A stretch of DNA of 64,000 nt. Source: Elusimicrobiota bacterium. GTDB lineage: Bacteria > Elusimicrobiota > Elusimicrobia > UBA1565. The position numbers were made by a program, and so were the translations under genes. Of this stretch, positions 8,335 to 64,000 are shown one piece after another. Within the stretch, counting starts at the first letter, position 1, and the number at the start of each line of letters is the position of its first letter. The stretch lies in the NCBI GenBank assembly GCA_016196755.1, contig JACPXC010000039.1, positions 10,645 to 74,644 of the forward strand, in the 5' to 3' direction. The notes below the pieces were generated by a model. The model did no database searches and was not told the origin of the DNA. It was given only the letters and a program-made list of their open reading frames with translations.

Positions 8335-8343
8335 GTCGGGCTC

Positions 8344-10634: not shown

Positions 10635-10675
10635 GGTCGTCTCCTGGTGCTGATGATGTGACGCTATTTTACCAA

Positions 10676-48736: not shown

Positions 48737-48769
48737 CATTTGGTATCGTCGCGGGGAGAAGGAGGAGAC

Positions 48770-49453: not shown

Positions 49454-50106
49454 AGAGCGTGCTCGTCTTCGCGAAGGCCCCCGTGCCCGGAGCGGTGAAG
49501 ACGCGTCTGACCCCGCCGTTCTCGGCCGAGCAGGCCGCCGGCCTCTATCGGGCCATGGCCGCCGACTGCTTGGGGGCGGCCGAAGCGGTCCCGGGGGCGC
49601 GGGTCAGAGTGGCCTATCAGCCCGCGCCGACCTGGCCGGACCCGTCATGGCTGAAGATCCCGGCCCCGGACTGGTTCCCGCAGGCGGGGGCCGACCTCGG
49701 ACGCCGCTTGGCCGCGGCCACGGAAAAGGCCTTCGTCGACGGCGCCGAGCGCGTCGTCGTCATCGGAACGGACTCCCCCCAGCTCGCCCCGGCCACGATC
49801 GAAGAGGCCTTCGCCCGTCTGGCCGCCGCGCCGCTGGTCCTGGGCCCCGCCGCCGACGGCGGCTACTACCTCATCGGCCTGCGCGAGCCGGCCCCGAGCT
49901 TGTTCGATGACGTCCCTTGGTCCACCGCGGGAGTCCTCAAAGCCACTCAGCAGCGGGCCGCCGAGCTGCATTGGCCCGTCCATCTGCTCGATGAGCTCGA
50001 GGACGTCGATGACGCCCCCTCCCTGGCCCGCATGCTGGCCGCCGTGAAAGGCGCCCCGCTGGCCCTGCGTACCCAGACGGCCATCGCCGACCTCACCCGG
50101 CGCTGA
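49450..50106 (+). CDS. DUF2064 / TIGR04282-like putative transferase
   Basis: Part of track ORF 48397-50106, from GTG 49450 (GTGA overlap). VLVFAKAPVPGAVKTRLTPP, VVVIGTDSPQL, LGPAADGGYYLIGL, VPWSTAGV, LEDVDD. Confidence 0.7.
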   Translation: MKSVLVFAKAPVPGAVKTRLTPPFSAEQAAGLYRAMAADCLGAAEAVPGARVRVAYQPAPTWPDPSWLKIPAPDWFPQAGADLGRRLAAATEKAFVDGAERVVVIGTDSPQLAPATIEEAFARLAAAPLVLGPAADGGYYLIGLREPAPSLFDDVPWSTAGVLKATQQRAAELHWPVHLLDELEDVDDAPSLARMLAAVKGAPLALRTQTAIADLTRR

Positions 50107-50107
50107 A

Positions 50108-51307
50108 TCAGGTTCCAGAAAACAGGTCGGCGGGGTCGGCGAGGAAGAATTCCTCGAGGGGCATCCCCCCGGGTCCGACGATGAACGGCCGGGCTTCAGG
50201 CCATAGCCGCTTGAACGCCCTCAGGCCGGCGCCGTCGCCGGGAGCGGCGCCCGACTTGACCTCGATGGCCCACAGAGCCCGCGGAGTCTTCACCACGAAG
50301 TCCACCTCGCGGTCCCGCTCGCGCCAATAATAGACCTGACTGGTCGTGGGGTCGAGCGCCCCCAGGAGATGCCCTCCCACTGCGTTCTCCACCAAGCGGC
50401 CGCGCCAAGCCGGGTCGCGCAGCGCGCGCTCACGCGGCTCCCCCAGATACGCCGTCACGAGGGCGTTGTTGCGAAAGACCAGCTTCGGGCTGCCGGCGCG
50501 CTTGCGGCCGCGCCCGGCTTTGTATAGGTCGAGCCCGCCCACGAGGAACGCCGAGTCCAACAGGTGGAGGTAATGCGCCAGGGTCGTCGTATTGCCGGCG
50601 TCCTGGAGTTGTCCGAGCATCTTGTTGTAGGAGAGGATCTCGGCAGGGTGCGAGACGGCGAGTCCGAAAAGATGGCGCAGCAAGGCGGGCTTCGCCACCG
50701 CCGCCAATTGGAGGACGTCGCGCGAAAGGACGGTCTCTATGAGCGAGTCCGTGATGTAGCGGCGCCAGGACGCCTCGTCCGCCTTTAAGACCGCCGCGCC
50801 GGGATAGCCTCCGAAATACAGCCAGTCTTCCAGGTCCCAGCCGAAGGCTTCGCGCATCTCGCCCAACGACCAATGGCCGCATTGATAAGAGAGGAAGCGG
50901 CCGGCCATGCTCTCCGCGAGGCCTTTCTGGATGAGAAGGCTCGATGAGCCCAGGAGCAGTACCCGGATGGCGCGGCTTTCCCGCCTGGCGCGATCCCAAA
51001 GCAGTTTGATCGTCTCGCTCCAGCCGGACACCTTTTGAATCTCATCGAGCACGAGAAGGACGCGGCCATCGCGCCCTCCTCGGGCCAACGCTAATTCCCA
51101 CTGGGCATGGATCCATTCCGGGCCGGGAGGCAACGGGGCGTCGGCCGCCGCGAAGACGGTCTCGCCCTTCCAGGTCCGGCAGATTTGCTGGGCTGCCGTC
51201 GTCTTTCCGACTTGCCGTGGTCCGGTGATGATATGAAGGAAGGGTAATTCCGTCGCTAATGCTTCCTCTATTTTCGCGACGAGGGGGTGCTTGTAAATAT
51301 TACTCAT
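50108..51307 (-). CDS. AAA-family ATPase with DUF4143-type C-terminal domain (paralog 1)
   Basis: Track ORF 50108-51346 trimmed to ATG 51307 (MSNIYKHPLV). Walker A ITGPRQVGKTT and Walker B LLVLDEIQKV. C-terminal EVDFVV...AIEVKSG is nuclease-fold-like. Confidence 0.8.
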   Translation of the reverse strand: MSNIYKHPLVAKIEEALATELPFLHIITGPRQVGKTTAAQQICRTWKGETVFAAADAPLPPGPEWIHAQWELALARGGRDGRVLLVLDEIQKVSGWSETIKLLWDRARRESRAIRVLLLGSSSLLIQKGLAESMAGRFLSYQCGHWSLGEMREAFGWDLEDWLYFGGYPGAAVLKADEASWRRYITDSLIETVLSRDVLQLAAVAKPALLRHLFGLAVSHPAEILSYNKMLGQLQDAGNTTTLAHYLHLLDSAFLVGGLDLYKAGRGRKRAGSPKLVFRNNALVTAYLGEPRERALRDPAWRGRLVENAVGGHLLGALDPTTSQVYYWRERDREVDFVVKTPRALWAIEVKSGAAPGDGAGLRAFKRLWPEARPFIVGPGGMPLEEFFLADPADLFSGT

Positions 51308-51346
51308 TGGTTGAGTAATTATACTCAACGATTGAGTAAAATGCAA
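51300..51346 (-). promoter_or_regulatory. Promoter of ATPase-1 overlapped by four alternating TGAGTAA half-sites
   Basis: Minus strand: TTGCAT (51346-51341), 17 nt, TATAAT (51323-51318), 10 nt, ATG. Half-sites at 51300-06 (rc), 51312-18, 51322-28 (rc) and 51333-39, about 10.5 bp apart. Confidence 0.6.
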
Positions 51347-51358
51347 TAGGCCAGAACG

Positions 51359-51766
51359 TCAGGGCAGGATGTGAAAGCCGGCGCAGTGGGCCGGCCGGAA
51401 GCTGGAGAAGTGCCGTCTATCCAGCGTCGCCAGACGAACCAGCTTGAGGCGCTCTGCCGTAGCGATGACGGCCGCGTCCACCATCCCCAGGTCGGGACGC
51501 CGGCGCGCGACCTCGATGATCCGCCCCAAGTCCCGCGGCTCGCTCCAGGCCACGGTCAGCTCGCCGGCCGCGAGGCTCTCAAGGAAGCTCAACTCCGCGG
51601 CGGCTCCGAGGAACTTGTTGGCGAGGTAGCACACCTCCGGGAGGACAGGCGAAGGGACGATGAAAGGGCCGCGCTCCCGGCCCAGCACCGCGCGCGCGGC
51701 GCGGTGGTGCGGATCGTCGCGGTCGAGAAGGGCGACCAGGAATCCCGTGTCCGTCAGGACGGCCAT
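51359..51766 (-). CDS. vapC: PIN-domain toxin (VapC-like), second copy
   Basis: MAVLTDTGFLVALLDRDDPHH is a PIN N-terminus. 1-nt overlap with the antitoxin stop. Confidence 0.8.
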   Translation of the reverse strand: MAVLTDTGFLVALLDRDDPHHRAARAVLGRERGPFIVPSPVLPEVCYLANKFLGAAAELSFLESLAAGELTVAWSEPRDLGRIIEVARRRPDLGMVDAAVIATAERLKLVRLATLDRRHFSSFRPAHCAGFHILP

Positions 51767-52002
51767 CAGCGCCGTCGGCCGCGGTCGAAGAGCAGGTCCT
51801 CGGAGCGCTCCGAGAGGCGCAGCTTCCCGCCGCTCGAGCCGGCCCCGACGAAGGACGGTTCCCCGGCCTTCGGCGAGTGCCGCGCGACGAATTCCGCCAG
51901 CGCGAGGCGGACGACTTCCGAGAACGAGACCCCCGTCCTCTGGGCCAGCGCCTTGAGTTGGAGGAGGAGGGAATCCTCGGCGACCACCGTGGTCCTTGTC
52001 AT
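51766..52002 (-). CDS. Ribbon-helix-helix (CopG-like) antitoxin
   Basis: MTRTTVVAEDSLLLQLKALAQRTGVSFSEVVRLALAEFV is an RHH pattern. Upstream partner of the PIN gene. Confidence 0.75.
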   Translation of the reverse strand: MTRTTVVAEDSLLLQLKALAQRTGVSFSEVVRLALAEFVARHSPKAGEPSFVGAGSSGGKLRLSERSEDLLFDRGRRR

Positions 52003-52062: not shown

Positions 52063-52326
52063 TCAGCGATCGAGTAAATCGTGAAAGAGGCTGTTCTGAA
52101 ACGCAGCGAGCCTGACCGGCGCCGGCTCGGCCGCCCGACGAGCCGCACGCGCGATAGCGCGCAACTGCCGCTCAAGGAAACGACAGGACGGGCAGATCAG
52201 CAGGTGCAGCCGTGCCAGGAGCCACGAAACCCCCGGACTTTCGAAGTCCCCCTCCGCCCGGCGGCGGGCGAAAGCGCGGCAGTCGAACATCGGCCTCACC
52301 GGGTCCCCCAACGCTTCTCCAGGCAC
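52063..52326 (-). CDS. Short zf-HC2-type anti-sigma factor (no obvious TM segment)
   Basis: H-x3-C-x2-C (LHLLICPSCRF) directly downstream of the ECF sigma gene. ATG 52290 (MFDCRAF) is an alternative start that removes the overlap. Confidence 0.55.
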   Translation of the reverse strand: MPGEALGDPVRPMFDCRAFARRRAEGDFESPGVSWLLARLHLLICPSCRFLERQLRAIARAARRAAEPAPVRLAAFQNSLFHDLLDR

Positions 52327-52862
52327 TCGCGCAGACGGTGTCGGGCACGGAAGAGCAGGACCCTCAGGTTAGTGTCGGAGACTTCCAAGACGTTACGGAT
52401 CTCCTCCGGCTCCAAGCCCTCGACCTCCTTGAGCTGGAAGGCCGCCCTCTGCGCCTCGGGAAGTTCCCCGAGGCAGGCCTTGATGTGCCCCTCGGTCTCG
52501 GACGCCGCGGCCTCTTCGTCTGGCCCCTTAGGGGGCTTGGCCCAATGCCCGTCGCCCGAAAAGCGCCGCTCGAACACTTCGTCGACGGGGTCGGTAGCGA
52601 CCTCGCGGGCGCGCAGCCGGCCGCGTTCCTTGGCCTTGAGGTACAGGATGCCGAAGAGATAGGTCCGGACCGAGGAGCGCCCCTCGAACCGGTCGAGCCC
52701 CGCCAGGAAGGCAGCGAAGGCCTCCTGCGCCAGGTCCTCGGCCTCGCCTTCGCCGAGCCCCAGAGCCATGGCCCCGCGCAGGAGCGGGCCGGAATTCTCG
52801 CGGACCACGGCCTCCAAGGCCTCCCGCTTCCGGGCACGCAGGTCGGCCAGAGAAGGCTCCAC
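52296..52862 (-). CDS. ECF-type RNA polymerase sigma factor
   Basis: Region 2 (DLAQEAFAAFL...) and region 4 (LPEAQRAAFQLKEVEGLEPEEIRNVLEVSDTNLRVLLFRARHRLRECL). GTG start 52862-52860 lies 6 nt after TAGAAT (52874-52869). Confidence 0.85.
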   Translation of the reverse strand: MEPSLADLRARKREALEAVVRENSGPLLRGAMALGLGEGEAEDLAQEAFAAFLAGLDRFEGRSSVRTYLFGILYLKAKERGRLRAREVATDPVDEVFERRFSGDGHWAKPPKGPDEEAAASETEGHIKACLGELPEAQRAAFQLKEVEGLEPEEIRNVLEVSDTNLRVLLFRARHRLRECLEKRWGTR

Positions 52863-52927: not shown

Positions 52928-53305
52928 GTGAGCACCAAGGTCTTGGTCGTTGACGACGACGAGGAATACCGGGGCATCGTGGTCGGGGCCCTCAAGACCG
53001 GGGGCTTCGAGACCGTCGAGGCCGACTGCATGGCCCAAGGGCTCGAGGTCTACCGCAAGGAGCGCCCCGAGGCCGTGGTCCTCGACGGCCAGCTCCCCGA
53101 CGGCGACGGCTTCGCCCTCTGCGCCATCCTGCGCAAGGAACCGGGCGGCGAGAAGCTGCCCGTCCTGCTCTGCACGATCCGCGGCTCCTTCGAGGAGGTC
53201 GTGGCCGGCCTCTCGGCGGGGCCCGACGACTACGTGGTCAAGCCCTTCGACGACCACGAGCTGCTGGCGCGCCTGCGCTCCGCGATCGACGCCCGCAAGA
53301 CATGA
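52928..53305 (+). CDS. Stand-alone receiver-domain response regulator (CheY-like)
   Basis: KVLVVDDDEEYR, AVVLDGQLPDGDG and YVVKPF receiver motifs. 125 aa, no output domain. Confidence 0.9.
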   Translation: MSTKVLVVDDDEEYRGIVVGALKTGGFETVEADCMAQGLEVYRKERPEAVVLDGQLPDGDGFALCAILRKEPGGEKLPVLLCTIRGSFEEVVAGLSAGPDDYVVKPFDDHELLARLRSAIDARKT

Positions 53306-54009
53306 AGGGGGCCCGCGTGGCCGTCGTCGAGGACGAACCGGGCTGGCTCGAGCTCCTCGAGCGCTCCTTGGGCGCGGCCGGCTTCGACGTGGCGGGCTTC
53401 GCGTCCCCCCTCAAGTTCCTCAAGTCCATGGCCACCGAGGTCCCCGAGGCCGCCGTCGTCGACATGCTCCTGCCCGGGATGGACGGACGCGAGGTCATCC
53501 GAGTCCTGCGCCGCGAGCCGCGCACGCGTCTGATCCCCATCGTGGCGATGACCGCCTCCGAGGTCTCCCCCAACTCGGCGGTCTCCGGCATCACGGCCGG
53601 CGCCGACGAGTATTTCCGCAAGCCCTTCGAGCCCGAGCTGCTCGTCGTCCGTCTCCAGGGGCTGCTCCAGCGCCGCCTCGGCGAGCCCGCGCCGTCCCCC
53701 GAGGCCGGCCTCCAGGACGACGGCATCTCGCTTTCTTTCGACAGCCGGGCCTGCACGGTGGACGGGAAGGGCCACGAGCTGACCCGGCTCGAGTTCGAAC
53801 TGCTCACCCATTTCCTGGGCCAGCCGGGCCGCGTCTACACCCGCCGCCACCTGCTGGACGCCTTCTGGCCCGGGCGCGTCCACAGCGACGGCCGCTCGCT
53901 CGACAAGCACGTCCAGCGCCTGCGCAAGGTCCTCGGCCGGCATTCCGACCGCCTGCAGACGGTCTACGCGGTCGGCTATGTCTGGCGCTTGAACGGAGGG
54001 ATGAAGTGA
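53302..54009 (+). CDS. OmpR-family response regulator
   Basis: VAVVEDEPG, AAVVDMLLPGMDG and YFRKPF motifs. Winged-helix output (LTRLEFELLTHFLGQPGRVYTRRHLLD...VGYVW). ATGA overlap with the upstream gene. Confidence 0.9.
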   Translation: MKGARVAVVEDEPGWLELLERSLGAAGFDVAGFASPLKFLKSMATEVPEAAVVDMLLPGMDGREVIRVLRREPRTRLIPIVAMTASEVSPNSAVSGITAGADEYFRKPFEPELLVVRLQGLLQRRLGEPAPSPEAGLQDDGISLSFDSRACTVDGKGHELTRLEFELLTHFLGQPGRVYTRRHLLDAFWPGRVHSDGRSLDKHVQRLRKVLGRHSDRLQTVYAVGYVWRLNGGMK

Positions 54010-54776
54010 ACCTCTCGCTCTGGCTCGGCTTGGGCGTCGGCACCGGCCTCCTGGCCTGGGGCGCGGCCAGCGGAGAGGCCGGCGGCTTCCTCAACACCCA
54101 CGGGATATCGGTCGTCATCGGCGGGACGCTGACGGCACTCCTGGCCGGCACCCCGATGGCCACGCTGGTCAGCTCGGTGCGCCGCGGCCTCGGACTCTTC
54201 ATGGCCGACCGGACGCCGACCCTCGAGGCCGCCATGGCCGAGGTCCTGCGTCTGGCCCAGGCCGCCCAGGACGGCGGGGGCCTGCTCTCGATCCAGGACG
54301 AGGCCCGCGACTTCGCCGAGGGCTTTCTGCACCGCTGCGTCCGGGTCGCCATCGCCTGCGGCGAGACCTCGGACGCACGGCGCGTGCTCGAGGAGGACAT
54401 CCGCCAGCGCCGCATCCTGCGCAACGAGGACGCCAACGTCTACCGCACGGCCGGCATGCTCTCGCCGATGTTCGGCATCCTGGGGACCCTGATCGGGATG
54501 ATCCAGGTGCTCTCCAAGCTCAACGACCCCAGCAAGGTGGGCCCCGCCATGGCGCTGGCCCTGTCCTCGGCCTTCCTCGGCATCGCCATCGCCAACATCC
54601 TCTGCATCCCGCTCGCCGGCCAGATCCGCATGTGGGCCATGAAGGAATCCCTGGTCCTCGAAGTCATCCTCGAGGGCGTGCTCAACATCGCCCTGGGCCG
54701 CCCCCCCATCGTCGTCGAGATGCGCCTGGCCTCCTACCTCGGCGCGCGTCCCACGCCGGCCGGCCGCCCCAAATGA
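54006..54776 (+). CDS. motA: MotA/PomA-type stator channel protein
   Basis: Part of track ORF 52950-54776, from GTG 54006 (GTGA overlap). Two N-terminal TM segments, a ~100-aa cytoplasmic loop, then MLSPMFGILGTLIGMIQVL...PAMALALSSAFLGIAIANILCIPLAGQI, which is the MotA/ExbB/TolQ core. Confidence 0.85.
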   Translation: MNLSLWLGLGVGTGLLAWGAASGEAGGFLNTHGISVVIGGTLTALLAGTPMATLVSSVRRGLGLFMADRTPTLEAAMAEVLRLAQAAQDGGGLLSIQDEARDFAEGFLHRCVRVAIACGETSDARRVLEEDIRQRRILRNEDANVYRTAGMLSPMFGILGTLIGMIQVLSKLNDPSKVGPAMALALSSAFLGIAIANILCIPLAGQIRMWAMKESLVLEVILEGVLNIALGRPPIVVEMRLASYLGARPTPAGRPK

Positions 54777-55390
54777 GCGTCTGGTACGAGCGCGAGGACG
54801 AACTGGAGGCCAACCTCAACCGCGGGGCCATGTGGAGCGTCACCTACGGCGACCTCATGAGCTACCTGGCGATCTTCTTCCTTCTGATGTATTCCGCCTT
54901 CGCCAGCAACGCCGTCAACATGCAGATGGACCTCAACGCGATCAAGGACCACTACAACAAGGAGGCCGACCTGTTCTCGCGCCACGGCATCCAGCAGATC
55001 GCCAAGCTCGAGGTCGGCGAGGACCGCATGCGGATCCTCTTCTCCGCGCCGGTGCTCTTCGACCCCGGCGAGGCCGACCTCAAGCCCATGGCCGAGGAGC
55101 ACCTTAAGAAGCTGGCCGCCGCCCTGCAGGAGCTCCCCAACCCCATCCAGATCGAGGGCCACACCGACGACCGGCCGCTCGGCAGGCACGCCGGCTTCAA
55201 GGCGAACTGGGAGCTCTCCGCCGCCCGCGCCTTCGCGGTCCTGCGCTGCCTGGAGCGCAACGGCGTCCCGTCCTCCCGCTTGGCGGCCATCGGCTACGGG
55301 GAGCATAAGCCCGTCGCCCTCAACGACACCTCGACCGGGCGCGAGGCGAACCGCCGCATCGAGATCAACCTGCTCAGGCGCCGGGAGTAG
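54773..55390 (+). CDS. motB: MotB-type stator protein with OmpA-like peptidoglycan-binding domain
   Basis: Part of track ORF 54632-55390, from ATG 54773 (ATGA overlap). WSVTYGDLMSYLAIFFLLMY includes the conserved TM Asp. NWELSAARA...RLAAIGYGEHKP...GREANRRIEI is OmpA-like. Confidence 0.88.
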   Translation: MSVWYEREDELEANLNRGAMWSVTYGDLMSYLAIFFLLMYSAFASNAVNMQMDLNAIKDHYNKEADLFSRHGIQQIAKLEVGEDRMRILFSAPVLFDPGEADLKPMAEEHLKKLAAALQELPNPIQIEGHTDDRPLGRHAGFKANWELSAARAFAVLRCLERNGVPSSRLAAIGYGEHKPVALNDTSTGREANRRIEINLLRRRE

Positions 55391-55397
55391 GCGGGCC

Positions 55398-57527
55398 TCA
55401 GGCCGGCTTCGCGGGCTTCGCGTCGCGCTTGGCCTGCTTCTCGGGCAGCCAGAACTGGAACACGCTGCCCTTGCCGAACTCGCTCTCCACCCAGATCCGG
55501 CCGCCGTGCGTCTCCACCACCATGCGGCAGACCGTGAGGCCGAGGCCGGTCCCGCGGGCCTTAGCGTTGACCTTGGTCTCCTCGACCTGGAAGAACTTCT
55601 GGAACAGTTTGCCGACCTTGTCGGCCGGGATGCCGGCGCCGGTGTCGCGGACCTGGACGAGGACGCCGTCGTGGTCGCGCTTGGCGCAGACGCTGACGGT
55701 GCCCTTCGACGGCGTGAACTTGAGGGCGTTGGAGATCAGGTTCTGTACCACGCGCTGGACCTGCGAGGCGTCCATCTCCAGCGGCGGCAGGTCCGGGGCC
55801 GCCTCGAGGCGGAGCTGGACCTCCTCCTTGGCCGCCTGGACCGACAGGAGGCCGTGGACGGCCTCGAGCACCGGAAAGAGCGGGGCGGGCTTGTAGTCCA
55901 GGGTCATCATCCCGGACTCGAACTTGGACACGTCGAGGATGTCGTCGACCAGGTGCGAGAGTGTCCTGGCGGCGTGGGTGATGACGGTAGCGCGCTTGCG
56001 GTGCTTCTCGCCTAGGGCGTTGTCGCCGGTGGCCTGGCCGGCCATCAGCATGAGCTCGGCCATGCCCGAGATGGAGGCCAGGGGGCTGCGCAGGTCGTGG
56101 GTGACGGTCTCGAGGATGTTCTGTTTGGTGCGCTCGACCTCCTTCTCGTAGGTGACGTCGCGCAGGATGAGCAGGATCCCCACCTCGCGCCGCTCGGCCC
56201 GTACCACGATCCCGCGCGCCGCGACCTGGCGAGGCTCCGTGCCCGCCGTGGCGCGCAGCTCGAACTCCGCGTTGCCCGCCTCGCGCTTGCGGCCGAGCAT
56301 CGCCAGAGCGAGGTCCCGCAGGGGTCCGGCCGGCAGGGCGCGGTGGACGCTGAGCTCCGTGCCCTCCGTGCCGCCCAGCATCTCCGCGGCCGAGGCGTTG
56401 GTGAAGGTGATGCGCCCGTCGAAGCCGGCCAGGACGATCCCGTCGGGGATCGTGCGGACCAGGGCGTCGACGCGCGACTTCTCCTCGAGCGTGCGCTCGA
56501 TATGGAGGTCCTGGACCTCCCGCAGGCGGCCGATCATCGTGTTGAAGGCCACGGCCAGGCGTTTGAGCTCGCCCCAGGCCAGTTCGGGGACGGGGGTCGA
56601 GAGGTCGTTGTCGGCCGCGCGCTCGGCGCCGGCCAACAGCGCGCCGATCGGGTCGGTCAGGCGGGCCGCGAACCAGGCGGCGAGGATCGCCACCAAGCCC
56701 ACCAACAGGCCCATGAACGCCGCCGCGCGGCCGGCGAACTCCGTGCCTACCGAGAGGGCTTCCGCGCGCGGCTGGAGGCTCATGACCCGCCAGTCGCCCG
56801 AGGTGGCGCCGGAGTAGGCGCCGACCATCCGGCCCGACGGCGCCGGGATGTCGGCCAGCCAGCCCGAGGCTTCGCCCAAGCGCACCGGCGGCCGCCAGGT
56901 GGGCGGCAGGAAGCCCTCGGCCGAGCCCTTGAGCGGACGGCCGTCGGCGCCCAGCACGACGACCCGGCCGGCGCGGCCGGGCTTGAGGGCCCCGAGCCGC
57001 TTCCAGAGCGGGGCCAGGTCGAAGGCCCCGTAGAGGAGCCGGCCGTCGAGCAGGGGGTAGGCGAAGACCAGCGCCGGGCGCCCCTCGATGATGGCCGGTT
57101 CGTCTAGGACCAGACGCCCGGTGGACTGGGCGCGCTTGACCAAGTCCTCCCCGGAGCGGTCGACGAGCTCCGGAGACTTGAAGACGGCGACGTCGGCCAG
57201 GCGGACGCGCTCCTTGCCGTCGAGGCTCAAAGTCGAGAGCAGGATGAAGGGCGGCGTGGCGGACGCGGCGCGCTGGAGGATGGCGAACTCCTTCTCGGGG
57301 GCTTTCGAGCCCAGACGCTCGAGGTCCTCGACGAAGCTTAAGCCCCGGTTGAGGCGGCCCACGGTGTCCTCGACGGTCGAGGCGGCCAAAGCCGTCAACT
57401 GCTCGTGGAGGAAGCGCGCGTTCTCCTCGGCGCGGCCCGTGGTGCGCAGGAACCAGGCCCCGGTGACGCCTACCGGGACGATCCCGACCGCGAGGAAGAC
57501 GACCAGCAATCGGCCGAAGAGGCCCAT
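55398..57527 (-). CDS. Membrane sensor histidine kinase (periplasmic domain, HAMP, PAS, HisKA, HATPase)
   Basis: Two TM segments flank a ~250-aa periplasmic region. HAMP (PIGALLAGAERAADNDL..), PAS (IPDGIVLAGFDGRITFTNASAAEMLG), H-box THDLRSPLASI, N/G boxes (NLISNALKFTP, VRDTGAGIP, GTGLGL). Confidence 0.92.
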   Translation of the reverse strand: MGLFGRLLVVFLAVGIVPVGVTGAWFLRTTGRAEENARFLHEQLTALAASTVEDTVGRLNRGLSFVEDLERLGSKAPEKEFAILQRAASATPPFILLSTLSLDGKERVRLADVAVFKSPELVDRSGEDLVKRAQSTGRLVLDEPAIIEGRPALVFAYPLLDGRLLYGAFDLAPLWKRLGALKPGRAGRVVVLGADGRPLKGSAEGFLPPTWRPPVRLGEASGWLADIPAPSGRMVGAYSGATSGDWRVMSLQPRAEALSVGTEFAGRAAAFMGLLVGLVAILAAWFAARLTDPIGALLAGAERAADNDLSTPVPELAWGELKRLAVAFNTMIGRLREVQDLHIERTLEEKSRVDALVRTIPDGIVLAGFDGRITFTNASAAEMLGGTEGTELSVHRALPAGPLRDLALAMLGRKREAGNAEFELRATAGTEPRQVAARGIVVRAERREVGILLILRDVTYEKEVERTKQNILETVTHDLRSPLASISGMAELMLMAGQATGDNALGEKHRKRATVITHAARTLSHLVDDILDVSKFESGMMTLDYKPAPLFPVLEAVHGLLSVQAAKEEVQLRLEAAPDLPPLEMDASQVQRVVQNLISNALKFTPSKGTVSVCAKRDHDGVLVQVRDTGAGIPADKVGKLFQKFFQVEETKVNAKARGTGLGLTVCRMVVETHGGRIWVESEFGKGSVFQFWLPEKQAKRDAKPAKPA

Positions 57528-57552: not shown

Positions 57553-58698
57553 TCAGGAGATATAGTCGCCGGCCCAGAGCCTCTCCAGAAACAGCCTCCA
57601 AGGAAGCACTTCGACCCCCCCGGCGATCCGGCGCGGCTCCAGCTCCAAGCCGACGACCACGCGCCGCTTGACCGGGCCGTCCTCGATGAGGGCCGCGAGC
57701 GAGCGGGTATCACCCTCATGGACCCGGGCCGAGCCCTTTACCTCGACGGCCAGTTCCTTGTCGCCGAAGATGAAGTCCACCTCCTGGCCCGTGCTGGTCC
57801 TCCAGAAGGCGATGGGATGGTCCGGCTTCCTGTAGGCCTGGTAGGCACGCAGCTCCATCAGGATGAAGTGCTCGAAGGATTTCCCGAAGTCGGAGCTTCC
57901 CGGACGCGGGACGCGCCGAGCCAGATGGTTGGCGACCCCCACGTCGAACAGGTAGAACTTCTCGGTCAGGATCATGCGGCGGCTCGGGGACCTCCGCCAA
58001 GGCTGGAGGCGGAACCCGAGATAGGTGTCCTCGAGGATGTCGAAATAGTTCCGGACGATCCGGGCGGAGACGCCGGACTCGCGCGCCGCGTTGACGTAGT
58101 TGAGCAACTCGCTGCCGGTCCGGGCCGCGACGAGCAGGAACTCCGAGAAGGCCGGGATACCGCGGCTCAGGGCCTCCACGGCGATCTCTTCCTTGAGGTA
58201 GTCCGCGACATAGGCCCGTAGGTCTTCTTCCGGCCGCTCCGAGAGGAAATGCGGCGGGAGGAGGCCCGAGGTCAGGGCACGTTCCAGGTCGAAGCCCTCC
58301 GTTTCCAGCGCCGAGAGCGGCAGCAGGGTCCGGCGCCAGGCCCGACCGCCCAGGAGGTTCGCGTGGCCGCGGCGGAGCTTACGGGCGCTCGAGCCCGTCA
58401 TCAGGAACGAGCATCCGGCGTTCTCGATGAGCCAATGGACCTCGTCGAGCAGGGCCGGGACCTTCTGGATCTCGTCGAGGACGATGAGGCCGCGATGCTC
58501 CGAGAAGCGCTCCCGCAGGAGGGCAGGCCGCGCGGCATAGTCGGCGAAGACGTCCGTCTTGAGCAGGTCTACGACGGCCGCGTCGCGCAGGTGATGGCGG
58601 ATCCAATAACTCTTGCCGGCCTTGCGGGGACCCCAAAGGAACGCCGATTGGCGGGGCGGAAGGCCCAGCTCGAAGAGGCGCTTGCATATCTTACGCAC
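57553..58698 (-). CDS. AAA-family ATPase with DUF4143-type C-terminal domain (paralog 2)
   Basis: Walker A LWGPRKAGKSY, Walker B LIVLDEIQKV. C-terminal EVDFIFGDKELAVEVKGS. GTG start 58698-58696. Confidence 0.8.
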   Translation of the reverse strand: MRKICKRLFELGLPPRQSAFLWGPRKAGKSYWIRHHLRDAAVVDLLKTDVFADYAARPALLRERFSEHRGLIVLDEIQKVPALLDEVHWLIENAGCSFLMTGSSARKLRRGHANLLGGRAWRRTLLPLSALETEGFDLERALTSGLLPPHFLSERPEEDLRAYVADYLKEEIAVEALSRGIPAFSEFLLVAARTGSELLNYVNAARESGVSARIVRNYFDILEDTYLGFRLQPWRRSPSRRMILTEKFYLFDVGVANHLARRVPRPGSSDFGKSFEHFILMELRAYQAYRKPDHPIAFWRTSTGQEVDFIFGDKELAVEVKGSARVHEGDTRSLAALIEDGPVKRRVVVGLELEPRRIAGGVEVLPWRLFLERLWAGDYIS

Positions 58699-58760: not shown

Positions 58761-59738
58761 TTATGACAGAGTAGGCTGCTCCGGCCCGCTGGCCGGGATG
58801 GCCAGGGTCACGCGCGCGCCGCCGCCCGGAGGGTTGGCGGCGTCGGCATCCCCTCCGGCCCGCCGCGCCACGCGGCTGGCCAGGGCCAGCCCCACGCCGA
58901 GGCGGCCCGGCTTGGGAGACGCGAACGGAGTGAAGGCCGAAGCCAGCGCTTCGGGCGAGAACCCCGGTCCGCTGTCGGCCACCTCGATGACGGCCCGGCC
59001 GTCCTCGCCGCGCCGCACGGCCACGCTCAGCGTGCCGCCGCGCGGCATGGCCTCGAAGGCGTTGCGGACCAGCTCGAAGAGCGCCGTGCGCAGGCCGTCC
59101 GCGTCGACCCGTACGCGCAGGCCGACCCCGCCGCGACGGCGCAGCGCCACGCCGCGCGAGCGCAAGGTGGGCTCCCAGGCCGCCAGGACGGCGTCGACGA
59201 CCGCCTGCAGAGGAGTGTCCTCCAGCACCCGGCCGTCGTCGAGGAGCAGCATGACCAGCCGCAGACGGTCGCGCGCGCGGGCCAACTCCGTGGCGGCCAG
59301 GCGCAATAGAGCCTTGGAGCCCTCGGGAAGCCGTCCTCCCCCGGCCCGGCGCACATGGGCCAGCGAGCGGGCCAAGGTGCCGTCGAGTTCCCCCGCCACG
59401 CGCAGCCAGGAAGGCTCGAGCAGAGGGTCGAGGCCGGGAGCGGGGGCCTCGGCGAAGCCCGGCTCCGCCTCCGGTGCCGTGGGAGCGGCCGGGGCGGCGG
59501 GAGCCTCGGGTGCTACGGGCGTCGTGAAGACCGCCTCCTCCAGATTCACGGGGAGCGCGGGAGCGGCAGGCGCGGCGGGCGTGACCGGCAGGACCGGCGG
59601 AGCGGGCTTTAGGAGCTTCGTCGGAAGGCGCAGGCGCTCGATGAGGGAGCGGACCTCGCCGACCAGGGCGTCGGTCGCCGGGTCGAGCGGCTCCCGGCCG
59701 GCCCCCTCGCCGCCCGCCGTCGAAGGACCGTCGGTCAT
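58761..59738 (-). CDS. Soluble histidine-kinase-like ATPase (HATPase_c) protein with Pro/Ala-rich N-terminal region
   Basis: C-terminal part of track ORF 58761-60719, from ATG 59738 (ATGA overlap with the upstream gene). N box LFELVRNAFEAM, G1 VADSGPGF, G2 GVGLALA. Only a weak H-box candidate (SLAHVRR). Confidence 0.65.
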   Translation of the reverse strand: MTDGPSTAGGEGAGREPLDPATDALVGEVRSLIERLRLPTKLLKPAPPVLPVTPAAPAAPALPVNLEEAVFTTPVAPEAPAAPAAPTAPEAEPGFAEAPAPGLDPLLEPSWLRVAGELDGTLARSLAHVRRAGGGRLPEGSKALLRLAATELARARDRLRLVMLLLDDGRVLEDTPLQAVVDAVLAAWEPTLRSRGVALRRRGGVGLRVRVDADGLRTALFELVRNAFEAMPRGGTLSVAVRRGEDGRAVIEVADSGPGFSPEALASAFTPFASPKPGRLGVGLALASRVARRAGGDADAANPPGGGARVTLAIPASGPEQPTLS

Positions 59739-61240
59739 CAGATGAGGCTCGCGGCGCCCTCGCCGCCGAGGACGATCAGGCCGCGCTCCGACATCGCGCG
59801 CGCCTCGGCCAGGATCCGGCCGCGGGCGGCCATGACCTTGTCGCGGGACTGCGGCTGGCGCAGGACCGAGCCGACCACGGCCTTGACCTCCAGCGGGAAC
59901 TCGGCGAGGATCTTGTCGGAGAGGTCGGCCGTCGTGCCGCGCAGGGCCAGGCCCCAGACCTCCTGGGGGACGGCGGTGATGAGCCGGCGCAGGTCGCGGC
60001 GCTCGAGGCCCGCCAACGCCTCGAACGGGAACAGGGCCGACTCCACGTCGCGCGCCGCGTCGGGGTCGCCGCTGATGAGCCCTCCCAGGACCTCCTCGCG
60101 GGTCTCCGGCGGGACGCGGCTGAGCAGGGCCCCGAGCCGCCGCGGCCCCTCGATCCCGCTCTCGAAGCGCGCGCGCAGGCGCTCCTCGAGGTCGTCGACC
60201 TTGCGCGGGTCGGCCTCGGAGAGCCGGGCCAGCGCCGCCGCCACGGAGGTCTGCAGCGGCGGGGGCAGGGACTCGAAGAGCCGGCCGGCGGCGTCCGGGG
60301 CGCTCTCGGATATCTGGGAGAAGAGCAGAGCGAGCTCGTCGGCGTTCTCCGAGGCCAGCCGCCGGGCGGCCTCCTGGGGCTCCCTTTCTATTAGGAAGTC
60401 GAAGCGCCGCCCCAAGGCCGGCAGGCGTCCGCCCGCCGCCAGCGACGGGTCGGCGCCGAGGTCGGCCAGGGAAGGCAGCCCGCCCCCCAAGAGCTCCATG
60501 GGACGCTCGGGCCCGGACGCGGCGCCGCCCTGGACCGAGGTCTGGGGGATGCGCTCGAAGCGTGAGCTGGCGATGGTCCCCAGCTCTCTCAGAAGGATGC
60601 GGACGCCGCGCAGGCCCGCCAAGACCACGATGGAGGCCAGGAGCAGGCCGCCGAACAGCCCGCCCGCCAGAAGGGCGCCCAGGCGCACGCCCTCGCTCGT
60701 GAAGGCCAGCGCCTTCCACGCCGGCATGAGGTCGGCGCGCAGGACCGTCAGGTCGTCCTCGCGCTCGGCCGCCAGGCGCAGGAGGTCGGGCAGAAGGCGC
60801 CGCACCGCGTTCTCCTGGGCCGCGGTGACCTTGCTGTCGATCACCACCGTCACGTTGACGCGCTTTATCTGCAGGCCGGGGTGGCGGGTCGAGCGCTCGA
60901 CGTCCTTCTGCACGAACTGGATCTCCGACTTGTCGTCGGCGATGGCCGCGTAGCCCGGCAGCTTGTCGCCGGCCAGGCTCGGGGGCTTGAGGACCGGCGT
61001 CACGACCTCCGACTGGGTCTGCACCTCGCTGATCTCGCCCTGGACGGTGACGAAGACCCGGGCCCGGCCCGGACCCAGCAGGCCGTCGAGGAAGTCGCGG
61101 GCCTGGCGCTCCATGCGCGCCGCGGCCTCATCGGACTCGGCGGCCGCGTACGCCGGGGCGCCGTGCCCCAGGATGGCGACCGCGGCCAATAGCGCCGCCG
61201 TTCTCATACCCCCCCAGGATGCCATGGCCCTATGACGCAT
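59738..61240 (-). CDS. FliF-like (MS-ring, YscJ/FliF family) periplasmic domain + TM + FliG-like middle and C-terminal domains in one polypeptide
   Basis: The start may be ATG 61207 (MRTAALLAAVAILG). Periplasmic hallmarks: GRARVFVTV and PGLQIKRVNVTVVIDSKV...EDDLTVLRADL. TM segment: GALLAGGLFGGLLLASIVVLAGL. Cytoplasmic part: ENADELALLFSQISE.. (FliG_M-like) and LFPFEALAGLERRDLRRLITAVPQEVWGLALRGTTADL...ERGLIVLGGE (FliG_C-like). Confidence 0.7.
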   Translation of the reverse strand: MRHRAMASWGGMRTAALLAAVAILGHGAPAYAAAESDEAAARMERQARDFLDGLLGPGRARVFVTVQGEISEVQTQSEVVTPVLKPPSLAGDKLPGYAAIADDKSEIQFVQKDVERSTRHPGLQIKRVNVTVVIDSKVTAAQENAVRRLLPDLLRLAAEREDDLTVLRADLMPAWKALAFTSEGVRLGALLAGGLFGGLLLASIVVLAGLRGVRILLRELGTIASSRFERIPQTSVQGGAASGPERPMELLGGGLPSLADLGADPSLAAGGRLPALGRRFDFLIEREPQEAARRLASENADELALLFSQISESAPDAAGRLFESLPPPLQTSVAAALARLSEADPRKVDDLEERLRARFESGIEGPRRLGALLSRVPPETREEVLGGLISGDPDAARDVESALFPFEALAGLERRDLRRLITAVPQEVWGLALRGTTADLSDKILAEFPLEVKAVVGSVLRQPQSRDKVMAARGRILAEARAMSERGLIVLGGEGAASLI

Positions 61241-61288: not shown

Positions 61289-62632
61289 CTAGGCCTTGGA
61301 GGCGGCCGGTCCTGAGACGGGGAAACGGACGAGGAACGTGGAGCCCTTGCCCGGGGCGGAGTCCAGGCGCACGTCGCCGCCGTGGAGCTCGGCCACGCGC
61401 TTGACCAGGGCCAACCCCAGCCCCGTGCCGGGCCCGCGGGTACCCTTGACGCGCTCGAACGGCCGGAACAGGGACTTCTGGGCCTCGGCCGGGATCCCCG
61501 CCCCGGTGTCGGTCACCGCCAGCTCCAGGGTCCGGCCGTCGGCCCCCTTGCGGGCCGAGACCCGGACCCTCCCCCCCCGCGGGGTGAACTTGATCGCGTT
61601 GGAGACGAGGTTCGCGATGACCTGTGCTACGAGGTCGGAGTCCATGCGCGCCTGCGGGAGGTCGGCGGCCACCTCGGCGCCGAGGTCGAGCCCCCCTTCG
61701 CGGGCATGCGAGGCGAAGAAGGCCGCGGCGTCCTCGACGATGGGACCCAGGGCGGCCGGCCGCAGGCGGAGCTCCACCGACCCGCGCGCCACCTTCGCGG
61801 TCTCGAGCAGGCTCGTGACGAAGTGCTCGAGCCGGCCCAGGTTGCGCTCGAAGGACTCCAGGCGCTTGGCGGCGGACTCCGGCAGGCCGCCCTCCGAGCG
61901 CAGGTCCTTGAGGTGGTGGCGCATCGCCGCCAGCGGGGCGCGCAGCTCGTGGGTCACCGCCGCGACGAAGGTGCGCTTGGACTCGTCGAGCTCGCCCAGG
62001 CGGCGGCCCGCCTCGCGCACCCCGCGGGCCAAGCGGGCGATCTCGTCGGAGCCCGAGGCCTCGGGCGCCGAGTCGAAGCGGCCCTCGGCCAGGCCGGCGA
62101 CCGAGCGCTCGATCTCGACGAGGCGCCGGGTGAGGCTGCCGGAGAGCAGTATCGAGGCCAAGAGGCCGACCGCCGCGGCCGCCCCTCCCGAGCGCAGGGC
62201 GTCGGCCAGGAGCAGGCCGTAGGCCTTCCGGCGCCCCTCGGCCGCCGTGCCCTGGTCGATGTTGAGCTGGACGGCCGCCGCCGTGGTGCCGCCCGGCCCC
62301 GGGACCCAGGCGCTGCGTTCATCGAGCGAGTCCACGGGCCGGGACTCGCCCACGTCGCGCCAGGGGTCGCCGCCCAGGCGCACGCGCGCCGAGGCGATGA
62401 CGGGGTGGTCCTTGCGCAGGGACGCGATGGCGTCGAGGAAGGCCAGCATGTCTCCCGAGAGCACCGCCTCGTTGGCCGCGGCCTCGGCCCGGGCCACCAG
62501 CATGTTCATGCGCTCCTCGTCGGCGCGGACCAGGGCCCGGCTCTGCAGGTGCAGGAAGACCGCGGCGGCGCCGGCCGTGGCGCCGGCCATCGCCACCGCG
62601 AGGATCAAGGCCAGCTTGAGGCGTACGCTCAC
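61289..62632 (-). CDS. Membrane sensor histidine kinase (HAMP, HisKA, HATPase)
   Basis: Track ORF 61289-63028 trimmed to GTG 62632-62630 (VSVRLKLALILAVAMAG). HAMP (LTRRLVEIERSVAGLAEGRF), H-box THELRAPLAAM, NLVSNAIKFTP, VTDTGAGIP, GTGLGL. Confidence 0.9.
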   Translation of the reverse strand: MSVRLKLALILAVAMAGATAGAAAVFLHLQSRALVRADEERMNMLVARAEAAANEAVLSGDMLAFLDAIASLRKDHPVIASARVRLGGDPWRDVGESRPVDSLDERSAWVPGPGGTTAAAVQLNIDQGTAAEGRRKAYGLLLADALRSGGAAAAVGLLASILLSGSLTRRLVEIERSVAGLAEGRFDSAPEASGSDEIARLARGVREAGRRLGELDESKRTFVAAVTHELRAPLAAMRHHLKDLRSEGGLPESAAKRLESFERNLGRLEHFVTSLLETAKVARGSVELRLRPAALGPIVEDAAAFFASHAREGGLDLGAEVAADLPQARMDSDLVAQVIANLVSNAIKFTPRGGRVRVSARKGADGRTLELAVTDTGAGIPAEAQKSLFRPFERVKGTRGPGTGLGLALVKRVAELHGGDVRLDSAPGKGSTFLVRFPVSGPAASKA

Positions 62633-62636
62633 GTTT

Positions 62637-64000
62637 TCACCGTTTCTTGAGCCGCTCGAGGGCGCGGCGCGCCGGGACGTTCTCGGGGTCGAGCTGGAGG
62701 ACGCGCATGAAGGCGGCGGTGGCCTGCAGCTGCTCGCCGCGGGCGTAGTGCTCGACGCCCTTCTGGTAGAGGCGCTCGACCTCGCGCGGGTCGACCTTGC
62801 GCGGCGCCGCGATCTGGTCGGGGGAGGCGTCCAGCGCCTGCGCGGCGCGGTCGATCGGCGCCACGGCCCGGACCGGCGCGGGGGCGGCGGCCGCCGGACC
62901 GCCGGGGAGCTGGGTGGGCGCTTGGCCCAGCGCGGCGCGGGCCTTGGCCATGTACTCCTCGAGGGCGCGGCGCTCGCCGGCGTCCTTCTCCTGCGGCAGG
63001 GCCTTGTTCCAGGCGTCCAAGGCCTCATTATAGCGCCCGGTGATGTAATACGTGGAGCCCAGCCGCTCGAGCATCCGGACGTTGGCCGGGTCGAGGGTGG
63101 CGATGTCCTCGAGCAGGGCCAGCGAGCGGTCGCTGTCGCCGCGGTTGTGGGCCGCCTCGACGCGCTGCAGGAGCTCGGCCATGAAGGTCCGCGGGTGGCC
63201 GCTGGGCAGGCGCTCGGCCGGGATGCCGACGCCCTCCTCGACCTTCTTGAGGAAGTTGTCGAGCTTGGCGTCGTTGGGGACCATGCTCAGGGCGTAGGAG
63301 CCGAAGAGCACGGCCTCGCGGTCGCGGGCGTAGAGGAAGGACGAGATCATCTTGGCCAGGTTCTCCATCGCCTTCTCCGGCTTGCTCGGCTGCTCGGAGT
63401 AGTAATAGACGACCAGGCCCAGACGGTTGGCCAGGCGGTTGAGGGCGGGGTCGGCGGGCAGGTTTTTGGCCAGCTCGAGCAGGGTGCCGCGCGCCTCGCG
63501 ATAGCGGCCGACCTCGACCAACGCCTTCACGCGCGCCAGCGACGGGTCGGTCAGGTCGCGCGGCCGCAGGGCGTCGCTGTAGTCCTTGCCGTACTCGGGG
63601 TCCTTGCCCTCGCGGGCGCGGCGCACGTCCTCGAGCAGGGCCCCGCTGATCTCGTCCTCGGGCGAGGGCGCGCCGAAGTGGAAGTTGAAGGAGAACCGAT
63701 GCGTCCCCATGGTCTCGGAGATCGTGCCCATCGGCATCAGGAAGGCGTAGTCGATGCCGATCTTGTTGATCCGGTAGGACAGGCCGGCCGAGACCTGGCG
63801 GAACTCGCGGCTGCCGATCCCCAGGCCGCCGCGGACGCCGAAGTTCCCGCCGGTCAAGGACGGGAAGAAGCGCTCGACGCCGACCAGGATGTCGCGGTCG
63901 GCCGAGCCGGAGGGGCCCTTCACGCTGCGCAGCTCCCCGGTCAAGTTCATCCAGAGCGCCTTGTAGGCCGCGCCGAGGCGGATGTCCATCGGCAGCTTGT
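62637..64000 (-). CDS. PorV/PorQ-like beta-barrel (C-terminal part visible) fused to a TPR-repeat region; N-terminus beyond window end
   Basis: The frame stays open to the window edge upstream of the track's ATG 63989. IDYAFLMPMGTISETMGTHRFSFNFHF parallels the C-terminus of the 27984-28862 barrel (LSYGVLPMGELGNTHRFSLGSRF). About 330 aa of TPR-like helices follow (YYITGRYNEALDAWNKAL; GVEHYARGEQLQATAAFMRVLQLDPEN). Confidence 0.6.
   Translation of the reverse strand, partial: KLPMDIRLGAAYKALWMNLTGELRSVKGPSGSADRDILVGVERFFPSLTGGNFGVRGGLGIGSREFRQVSAGLSYRINKIGIDYAFLMPMGTISETMGTHRFSFNFHFGAPSPEDEISGALLEDVRRAREGKDPEYGKDYSDALRPRDLTDPSLARVKALVEVGRYREARGTLLELAKNLPADPALNRLANRLGLVVYYYSEQPSKPEKAMENLAKMISSFLYARDREAVLFGSYALSMVPNDAKLDNFLKKVEEGVGIPAERLPSGHPRTFMAELLQRVEAAHNRGDSDRSLALLEDIATLDPANVRMLERLGSTYYITGRYNEALDAWNKALPQEKDAGERRALEEYMAKARAALGQAPTQLPGGPAAAAPAPVRAVAPIDRAAQALDASPDQIAAPRKVDPREVERLYQKGVEHYARGEQLQATAAFMRVLQLDPENVPARRALERLKKR

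Follow-up and report, generated by a model that had tools for sequence, protein, structure and literature searches.

The fusion gene and its reading frame

We analysed a window of 64,000 nucleotides (the whole stretch of DNA studied here) from contig JACPXC010000039.1 of an Elusimicrobiota bacterium (assembly GCA_016196755.1). The analysis centred on a reverse-strand gene whose product joins a periplasmic ring-building domain of flagellar FliF to the middle and C-terminal domains of FliG. A sequence-only reading of this DNA had proposed such a natural fusion as a minimal, one-polypeptide rotor protein. The open reading frame (ORF) is present as described, with every string quoted for it, and is a strongly coding gene: GC contents at the three codon positions are 0.76, 0.50 and 0.95, a profile matching that of real genes in this window of 70% GC. 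The gene and its segments are as follows.

59738–61240, reverse strand: gene for the fusion of FliF ring-building motif 3 (RBM3) with FliG M and C domains; ATG at 61240 gives 500 aa, ATG at 61207 gives 489 aa
61145–61240, reverse strand: N-terminal signal peptide or weak transmembrane (TM) segment, aa 1–32, with predicted cleavage between AYA and AAE
60701–61144, reverse strand: periplasmic FliF RBM3/β-collar-like domain, aa 33–180 (Pfam PF08345, Foldseek and hidden Markov model (HMM) alignment)
60587–60691, reverse strand: TM helix, aa 184–218, equivalent to FliF TM2 (hydropathy scan, AlphaFold2 model and HMM alignment)
60416–60586, reverse strand: cytoplasmic linker, aa 219–275, predicted to be disordered
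60155–60415, reverse strand: FliG middle (ARM_M) domain, aa 276–362, opening at a conserved LGRRFDFL motif
59765–60109, reverse strand: FliG C-terminal domain, aa 378–492, including the torque-helix equivalent (aa ~447–462)

Translation more probably starts at the ATG at 61207 (M12), which would give a product of 489 aa, because a G-rich, Shine-Dalgarno-like run (GGGGGG) lies just 5' of this codon and the public gene call for the fusion starts there. One family member carries the PGAP label 'FliG C-terminal domain-containing protein'.

Domain architecture of the fusion protein

The fusion protein consists of a FliF RBM3/collar, a TM helix and the FliG middle and C-terminal domains. We accept these identities because Pfam, NCBIfam, a profile search of the PDB and Foldseek concur. 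At the N-terminus, the hydrophobic core falls under the TM threshold of the hydropathy scan and an AxA motif can be read there; the segment looks like a cleavable signal peptide, in keeping with the signal or TM segment that the sequence-only reading placed here. The scan finds a single strong TM segment in the protein, at aa 184–218.

The periplasmic part between them measures about 150 aa rather than the roughly 180 aa first estimated. The ring-building module claimed for it was recovered by Pfam, Foldseek and HMM alignment, and can now be specified as RBM3 plus collar. Its motifs are LLGPGRARV and REDDLTVLRADL, the counterpart in FliF being RGDSLNVVNSPF. The Pfam family YscJ_FliF_C (PF08345) matches aa 113–167 with 31.0 bits (gathering threshold, GA, 23.8) and is matched over its full length in relatives, for instance in P0014 at model positions 1–146 of 147. 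By HMM alignment, positions 85–225 of the family correspond to residues 342–496 of Escherichia coli FliF, a span that takes in the C-terminal half of RBM3, the RGDSLNVV motif and TM2; the conserved RGD-x-L-x-V motif of the family aligns to FliF 422–433.

On the cytoplasmic side, both FliG domains that had been aligned by eye score above their thresholds: FliG_M (PF14841) at aa 292–361 with 28.7 bits (GA 25) and FliG_C (PF01706) at aa 391–491 with 56.9 bits (GA 23.3; E 2.9e-15). Family positions 272–479 align with E. coli FliG 113–325. A profile built from the window protein and nine relatives (A1) finds Thermotoga maritima FliG-MC (1lkv) at E 3e-28 over profile positions 265–486, and matches a FliF chain weakly. 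Between the TM helix and FliG_M, a linker of about 55 residues, poorly conserved in alignment A1, stands where FliF would have its C-terminal peptide and FliG its N domain.

The AlphaFold2 monomer model (pLDDT 71.9) has in its N-terminal half a helix (aa 29–55), four long β-strands, a second helix (aa 140–153) and one last strand; it continues with a long TM helix, a stretch predicted to be disordered (pLDDT below 50 over aa 226–277) and the FliG helical domains. Searched with Foldseek, the model retrieves FliG-MC structures (3usy at 1e-9) and the Salmonella FliF RBM3/collar (6sd1 at 3e-7, with 152 aligned columns against a chain of 151 residues), and far more weakly SpoIIIAG (7e-3) and PrgK (0.07).

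Canonical parts and residues that are missing

The fusion protein lacks large parts of both flagellar proteins. Pfam gives no match to RBM1/RBM2 (PF01514), which in FliF build the inner M-ring and house the export gate. Nor does it match FliG_N (PF14842) anywhere in the protein, the alignment to E. coli FliG beginning at residue 113. The FliF C-terminal peptide to which FliG_N binds is likewise absent from both the HMM alignment and the model, the linker standing in its stead. The FliG equivalog model TIGR00207 reaches 51.5 bits against a cutoff of 226.7, and covers model positions 111–329 only. Placement of the C-terminal half in the MgtE_N family (PF03448), set by the sequence-only reading as the alternative to FliG, was rejected: Pfam gives no MgtE_N match to the window protein even at E≤10, while FliG_M and FliG_C stand above threshold. 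A few relatives have weak, sub-threshold MgtE_N matches.

Functional residues were compared in an HMM-based sequence alignment of 141 family members, made without structural superposition. Of the EHPQR motif, which forms the FliM-binding surface of FliG, the E is kept in 116 of the 141 (E298 in the window protein) and the P in most; in place of H, Q and R160 the window protein has N, D and A, and these positions vary across the family. The 'switch' role suggested earlier is unsupported, because this FliM-binding motif is degenerate and no FliM or FliN gene lies nearby.

The charged ridge of FliG_C has changed as well. The K264 equivalent is R434 (R or K in 88/141), the R281 equivalent is E451 (Gly in 82/141), the D288 equivalent is S458 (E, Q or D in the family), the D289 equivalent is V459 (variable in the family), and R297 falls in a two-residue gap in the window protein. 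The earlier by-eye alignment, which had placed R281, D288 and D289 on A, S and V, was thus right about the last two and about the loss of the canonical residues, and wrong about the first, which falls on E451. A basic residue lies two positions after the R281 column, K453 in the window protein and Arg in most close relatives.

A flagellar-class stator pair

A stator pair is encoded on the opposite strand, some kilobases from the fusion gene.

54006–54776, forward strand: MotA/PomA-like stator A subunit (Pfam MotA_ExbB), with a GTG start that overlaps the stop of the second response-regulator gene
54773–55390, forward strand: MotB-like stator B subunit, with TM Asp, plug and OmpA-like peptidoglycan-binding domain

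This pair is of the flagellar class and, judged by its conserved residues, looks intact. In NCBIfam the MotA protein matches only flagellar stator families (PomA/MotA/MotP, 106–134 bits), with no match to TolQ or ExbB; against the PDB it aligns over its whole length with flagellar MotA (9lu9, 1e-33) and PomA (6e-27). The pore prolines (P173 and P222 equivalents) are conserved, as is the D32 equivalent of MotB, whose plug scores 30.8 (MotB_plug, GA 24). A Zorya or other defence system was considered, ZorAB being homologues of MotAB, and rejected: PADLOC has no match for the MotA or the fusion protein, and for the MotB protein returns only generic ZorB/MotB similarity.

In E. coli, R90 and E98 of MotA pair with D288/D289 and R281 of FliG. 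The R90 equivalent is Gln in the window protein, Arg being found among family MotAs only in L021, one of the related loci described below; the E98 equivalent is Gln in all family MotAs examined. With MotA R90 and E98 both turned to Gln and FliG R281, D288 and D289 replaced, the canonical stator–rotor charge pairs are lost on both partners, a pattern that a co-evolved, non-canonical interface and a loss of torque coupling would both fit. A compensating pair between a QDE stretch of MotA and FliG K453 is speculation, the alignment offset being ambiguous at this point.

A large family, assigned to Elusimicrobiota wherever placed

A word-indexed search yielded nine relatives, including one named from an Elusimicrobia metagenome-assembled genome (MAG), and repeating it with a profile of 94 sequences (A2) returned the same nine and nothing further. 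An exhaustive profile search, by contrast, recovered 155 representatives of clusters formed at 50% identity, all below 1e-30 and most of them full-length (470–850 aa). The architecture is thus common to at least 155 clusters, and the full-length form is kept in more than 150, at identities down to about 20%. Among species-representative genomes, 15 loci were found, all in Elusimicrobiota MAGs, with identities of 31–57%. In L029, home to a distant member, the neighbouring iPGM gene is closest to Elusimicrobia, at 72–75% identity. Every relative with an assignable taxon, a set that does not include L021, L023 and L028, is from the Elusimicrobiota.

Two variants extend the common architecture. 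About seven representatives (P0085, P0102 and P0160 among them) bear a HisKA-HATPase module at the N-terminus. These kinase-fused relatives are 842 aa long (10001–12529 in L023/L024), with a predicted topology of TM, histidine kinase, TM, RBM3, TM and FliG; one is listed by JGI as 'signal transduction histidine kinase/flagellar motor switch protein FliG'. Many others add a cytoplasmic TPR tail after FliG_C (P0065, P0068, P0096, P0101 and P0107; loci L030–L068). This TPR-tailed branch has near-canonical FliG_C scores, with Gly at R281 and Glu-Glu at D288/D289. In distant branches, FliG_C reaches 104 bits and FliG_M 62 bits, and YscJ_FliF_C is matched in full. Because these distant branches carry the stronger flagellar signatures, the window clade looks like the derived one.

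The fusion cluster and its conserved neighbours

In the window, the fusion gene stands between genes for sensory and envelope proteins.

62637–64000, reverse strand: C-terminal part of a PorV-like outer-membrane β-barrel with periplasmic TPR, the gene running past the window end
61289–62634, reverse strand: membrane histidine kinase (TM-HAMP-HisKA-HATPase), immediately upstream of the fusion gene
58761–59738, reverse strand: HATPase-only gene, degenerate and histidine-kinase-like, downstream of the fusion gene
57553–58698, reverse strand: AAA_14/DUF4143 ATPase gene, between the HATPase-only gene and the next kinase
55398–57527, reverse strand: dCache-HAMP-PAS-HisKA-HATPase sensor kinase, convergent with motB
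52928–54009, forward strand: single-domain response regulator (52928–53305) and OmpR-type response regulator (53302–54009), in an operon with motA-motB

These genes are tightly packed. The GTG start of the upstream kinase (62632–62634) is a few nucleotides past the stop of the barrel-TPR gene, the TGA of the fusion gene shares one nucleotide with the ATG of the HATPase-only gene, indicating translational coupling, and stops and starts overlap throughout the four-gene operon of the two response regulators, MotA and MotB. The HATPase-only gene is kept downstream of the fusion in 13 related loci. The AAA_14/DUF4143 gene looks like an insertion into the cluster, because none of the related loci has such a gene at that position; a second one lies at 50108–51346 on the reverse strand. 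Just upstream of the response-regulator/motAB operon, and divergent from it, are genes for a PIN-type toxin with a small antitoxin-like ORF upstream (51359–52002) and for an extracytoplasmic function (ECF) sigma factor with a probable anti-sigma gene (52063–52862), all on the reverse strand.

Synteny of the close clade was assessed by tblastn of the window proteins against 20 related loci. The order barrel-TPR, histidine kinase, fusion, (HATPase), dCache histidine kinase is shared by the window and L001, L006, L008, L010, L015, L017 and L020. A convergent MotB-MotA pair with the two regulators is found in every close-clade locus with enough flanking sequence, except L014 and L016. Two further genes were noted at related loci: a receiver-domain, T2SSE/PilB-like ATPase in L001 (8021–9778) and a Roadblock/LC7 (MglB-like) protein in L028 (15798–16145).

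In more distant loci the module is more compact. In L029, the TPR-barrel, fusion, MotA and MotB genes form one operon. L021 and L022 have the fusion, MotA and two MotB genes, with genes for a CHU_C protein and a barrel-TPR protein upstream; the MotB paralogues stand in tandem after the one MotA (L021 12293–13630, L022 2731–4068). L023 encodes in order a giant protein, a barrel-TPR protein, the kinase-fused polypeptide, a 426-aa coiled-coil protein, MotA and MotB. For the TPR-tailed branch, a metagenome scan with a narrower alignment (A4) retrieved 39 loci. The barrel-TPR gene is directly upstream of the fusion in all that have upstream sequence, and MotA-MotB follow on the same strand about 4 kb downstream in 12 of the 13 loci with at least 6 kb of downstream sequence. 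Between fusion and motA, this branch has a conserved protein of 830–1012 aa without Pfam match, as in L065 (a 2732-aa giant protein, PorV-TPR, fusion, the 1012-aa protein, MotA, MotB and rplM).

A barrel-TPR gene is upstream of the fusion in every branch of the family, and a dedicated flagellar-type MotA/MotB pair is syntenic with the fusion in almost all relatives whose flanking sequence is long enough; in L021, L029 and L065, barrel-TPR, fusion and MotAB occur without an adjacent kinase. The conserved core is composed of one or more proteins with a putative type IX secretion system (T9SS)-type C-terminal sorting domain (CTD), the PorV-like barrel-TPR protein, the RBM3-FliG fusion, MotA and MotB. 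Neither the 64-kb window nor any gene table of the related loci shows a gene for FliM/FliN, FlhA/B, FliPQR, rod, hook or flagellin; this screen covered about 25 annotated or BLAST-screened loci and 10 kb on either side of each.

PorV-like barrels and putative T9SS-type sorting domains

The 'TPR' proteins encoded upstream of the fusion (520–730 aa) are all homologous, and their N-terminal 300 aa or so resemble a bona fide PorV-family protein (31% identity, 4e-38). NCBIfam PorV_fam scores the L001 barrel at 70 (cutoff 90), and Pfam PorV scores the L065 barrel at 28.4 (GA 27). The small and large genes that precede the barrel match T9SS-type CTDs, some above the curated cutoff and others below it: TIGR04183 gives 29.3 for the small protein of L010 (cutoff 23). 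Components of the Bacteroidota machinery (GldLM/PorLM, PorK/N, SprA, PorU) did not turn up in the related loci, no search having been aimed at them.

The window holds a second set of such genes, away from the fusion.

28859–36400, reverse strand: 2513-aa protein with polysaccharide deacetylase, four DUF4082 domains, many Kelch repeats and a T9SS type A sorting domain (TIGR04183 29.0, cutoff 23)
27984–28964, reverse strand: weak PorV/UPF0164-like barrel gene, immediately downstream of the 2513-aa gene

Together they make up a second pair of CTD cargo and PorV-like barrel. A 2644-aa ORF (39978–47912, forward strand) has a strong coding bias and no Pfam match; its last ~140 aa resemble (37%) the C-terminus of the giant protein encoded ahead of the L010 fusion cluster, and NCBIfam finds no CTD in its last 200 aa.

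Other genes in the window

A run of lipid/polyketide-type genes (7399–16310, reverse strand) encodes a malonyl-CoA:ACP acyltransferase-like protein, an acyltransferase with a phosphopantetheinyl transferase, a β-ketoacyl synthase and a protein like β-ketoacyl synthase III; a GGDEF gene lies near it (4107–4781). A mechanically called ORF of 569 aa (48397–50106, forward strand) was discarded as a high-GC artefact. The apparent real genes under it encode a GT2 glycosyltransferase (48740–49453) and a DUF2064 protein (49450–50106).

Relation to known systems

In domain order and topology, the fusion matches flagellar FliF plus FliG and the engineered fusions of these proteins from Salmonella and Vibrio (e.g., PDB 8z4d and 8z4g), and its partner stators are of the MotA/PomA class, as in flagella. 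Engineered covalent FliF-FliG fusions assemble rings (PMC6079021, PMC11481574). The fusion described here, unlike these, is natural. It also differs from FliF plus FliG in lacking RBM1, RBM2, the FliF C-terminal peptide and FliG_N, in its degenerate EHPQR motif and torque charges, and in having a probable signal peptide where FliF has its N-terminal TM segment. Unlike flagellar loci, its neighbourhood is devoid of genes for FliM/FliN, export apparatus, rod, hook and filament. The searchable literature yielded only engineered FliF-FliG fusions, none natural or non-flagellar, and no account of FliG partners for non-flagellar stators or of motility or T9SS in Elusimicrobiota.

The neighbourhood brings to mind the T9SS and gliding machinery of Bacteroidota, in which GldLM powers both secretion and gliding. 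In both, genes for an inner-membrane ion motor of the 5:2 type seem to be linked to those for a PorV/PorP-like barrel and for giant surface proteins, which here have putative T9SS type A/B C-terminal sorting domains. The order of a CTD-protein gene and then a barrel gene recalls the sprB-sprF type of pair. The motor, however, would be MotAB with a FliG-bearing ring here, whereas in Bacteroidota it is GldL5M2 with the long periplasmic arm of GldM, and the Elusimicrobiota barrel carries a TPR extension. T9SS has been described in other phyla; the fusion lineage is that of the Elusimicrobiota.

Other proteins share single folds with the fusion. SctJ/PrgK and SpoIIIAG have the αββαβ RBM fold, and the β-insertion is like that of SpoIIIAG and FliF RBM3, but those proteins come without FliG domain or stator and are matched far more weakly (SpoIIIAG 7e-3 and PrgK 0.07, versus 3e-7 for FliF RBM3). 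The N-terminal domain of the Mg2+ channel MgtE is distantly homologous in fold to FliG; the fusion, unlike MgtE, has neither CBS nor MgtE membrane domains.

A proposed ring and its motor

The fusion may build the rotor-like ring of a non-flagellar envelope machine, one driven by MotAB, connected with a T9SS-like sorting or adhesin apparatus and under two-component control; we regard this reading as evenly poised between right and wrong. To our knowledge, FliG is the only partner of MotA/PomA-class stators and has until now been known only inside flagella; we likewise know of no role of these stators other than pushing FliG_C, and of none for FliF RBM3 other than building the S-ring and collar. 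A ring whose FliG_MC domains are driven by MotAB would on these grounds be the most economical reading. RBM3 domains would assemble in the inner membrane as an annulus resembling the S-ring, which would set a ring of FliG_MC beneath the membrane at 1:1 stoichiometry and so make FliG_N and the FliF C-terminal peptide dispensable. Flagellar FliF rings count roughly 33–34 subunits. Peptidoglycan-anchored MotA5B2 units would conduct ions and push FliG_C through a non-canonical interface, and the ring would turn, or at minimum take up torque. From the periplasmic collar the work would reach the PorV-like barrel at its TPR arm, where it may energise export, release or lateral movement of the CTD-bearing giant surface proteins, in the manner of GldLM. 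As a layer on top, the adjacent kinases and response regulators may tune the machine or read it out.

Several observations speak against this proposal. The loss of charge pairs on both sides could mean that stator and rotor make no productive torque contact. The disordered linker of ~55 residues, which replaces the rigid joint of FliF_C and FliG_N, would be a poor torque transmitter unless rigidified by a partner. Nothing resembling an axle- or rod-like protein was identified at the loci, MotAB are not within 10 kb in L014, L016 and L028, and barrel and some CTD matches stay below curated cutoffs in several loci. The one-polypeptide rotor claimed by the sequence-only reading does gain independent support from the syntenic MotAB and the absence of other flagellar genes nearby; ring formation and rotation are extrapolated from homology, and the link from collar to TPR and the output are inferred.

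Alternative explanations

Among the alternatives, the strongest competitor makes the fusion a signalling scaffold or mechanosensor: the ring would dock MotAB through FliG_C, and the kinases would read stator engagement or ion flow and signal to the OmpR-type regulator, perhaps to sense the envelope, surface contact or the proton-motive force. The conserved Elusimicrobiota cluster does hold three kinase-like genes and two response regulators, the regulator genes overlapping with motAB in a single operon. One subfamily has a HisKA-HATPase module built into the ring protein, and a flexible linker with lost charge pairs would suit binding better than torque transmission. The most distant branches (L021, L029, L065), however, are free of kinases and keep only barrel-TPR, fusion and MotAB, which makes signalling look like an optional extra. 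The one partner that never varies, an outer-membrane barrel with CTD cargo, suggests a mechanical or secretory output, and the pore prolines of MotA and the Asp and plug of MotB are those of working stators. We consider a purely signalling role unlikely, though a serious candidate.

A static ring or conduit in the periplasm, of the SctJ/SpoIIIAG type, seems improbable. Its FliG/MgtE_N-like domain would be regulatory or gating, and MotAB would power another component, for instance the barrel-TPR protein by a Tol/Ton-like mechanism. RBM rings also make non-rotating channels, and SpoIIIAG and PrgK are indeed among the weaker Foldseek matches (7e-3 and 0.07); FliG and the MgtE N-domain are homologous, some relatives have weak MgtE_N matches, and no axle protein was identified. 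Yet the best matches are specifically to FliF RBM3/collar and to FliG M plus C, including the conserved FxFE and GxxG linker features. The window protein itself has no MgtE_N match, and the co-inherited stator is of the MotA/PomA class, not TolQ/ExbB.

We think it a shade less probable still that the fusion serves a genuine flagellum encoded elsewhere in the genome, as an accessory or alternative rotor, either a second MS/C-ring isoform or an extra ring with its own stators. All its domains are flagellar homologues, FliG_C scores in distant branches, at up to 104 bits, equal those of canonical FliG, several stator sets per genome are common among bacteria, and our gene screens reached only the window and ±10 kb of the related loci. 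Within that range, however, no flagellar gene was seen in about 25 loci or in the 64 kb. RBM1/2, which would house the export gate, and FliG_N are absent, the FliM-binding motif is degenerate, Gln at the R90 and E98 equivalents of MotA is a poor match to canonical FliG, and the conserved neighbours are PorV-like and CTD genes.

Finally, a decaying relic of a lost flagellar system, joined by chance, would account for the many canonical FliF and FliG features that are gone, but is effectively refuted by the intact frame with its GC3 of 0.95 and by the conservation of full-length architecture in more than 150 clusters, with synteny and translational coupling kept, and we give it next to no credence.

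Implications

What we see is the flagellar rotor–stator core in a new architecture and setting, and it suggests a pared-down machine, driven by ions, that has not been described before. We put forward only tentatively, leaning towards doubt, the wider claim of a new class of envelope machine: a rotary motor made of only an RBM3-FliG ring and MotAB, powering a T9SS-like sorting or adhesin system in Elusimicrobiota without type III export apparatus, rod or filament. If true, this would be the simplest rotor–stator pair known, an S-ring module welded to FliG_MC with a private stator, and therefore attractive for structural and single-molecule torque studies. It would mean that the core of the flagellar motor is usable outside flagella, and would provide a candidate energy source for T9SS-type sorting beyond the Bacteroidota. 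It would also offer an extant system for phylogenetic tests of scenarios for the origin of the flagellar motor: should its FliG and MotA branches prove basal, the Elusimicrobiota machine could represent a rotor–stator module recruited to a secretion system at that origin.

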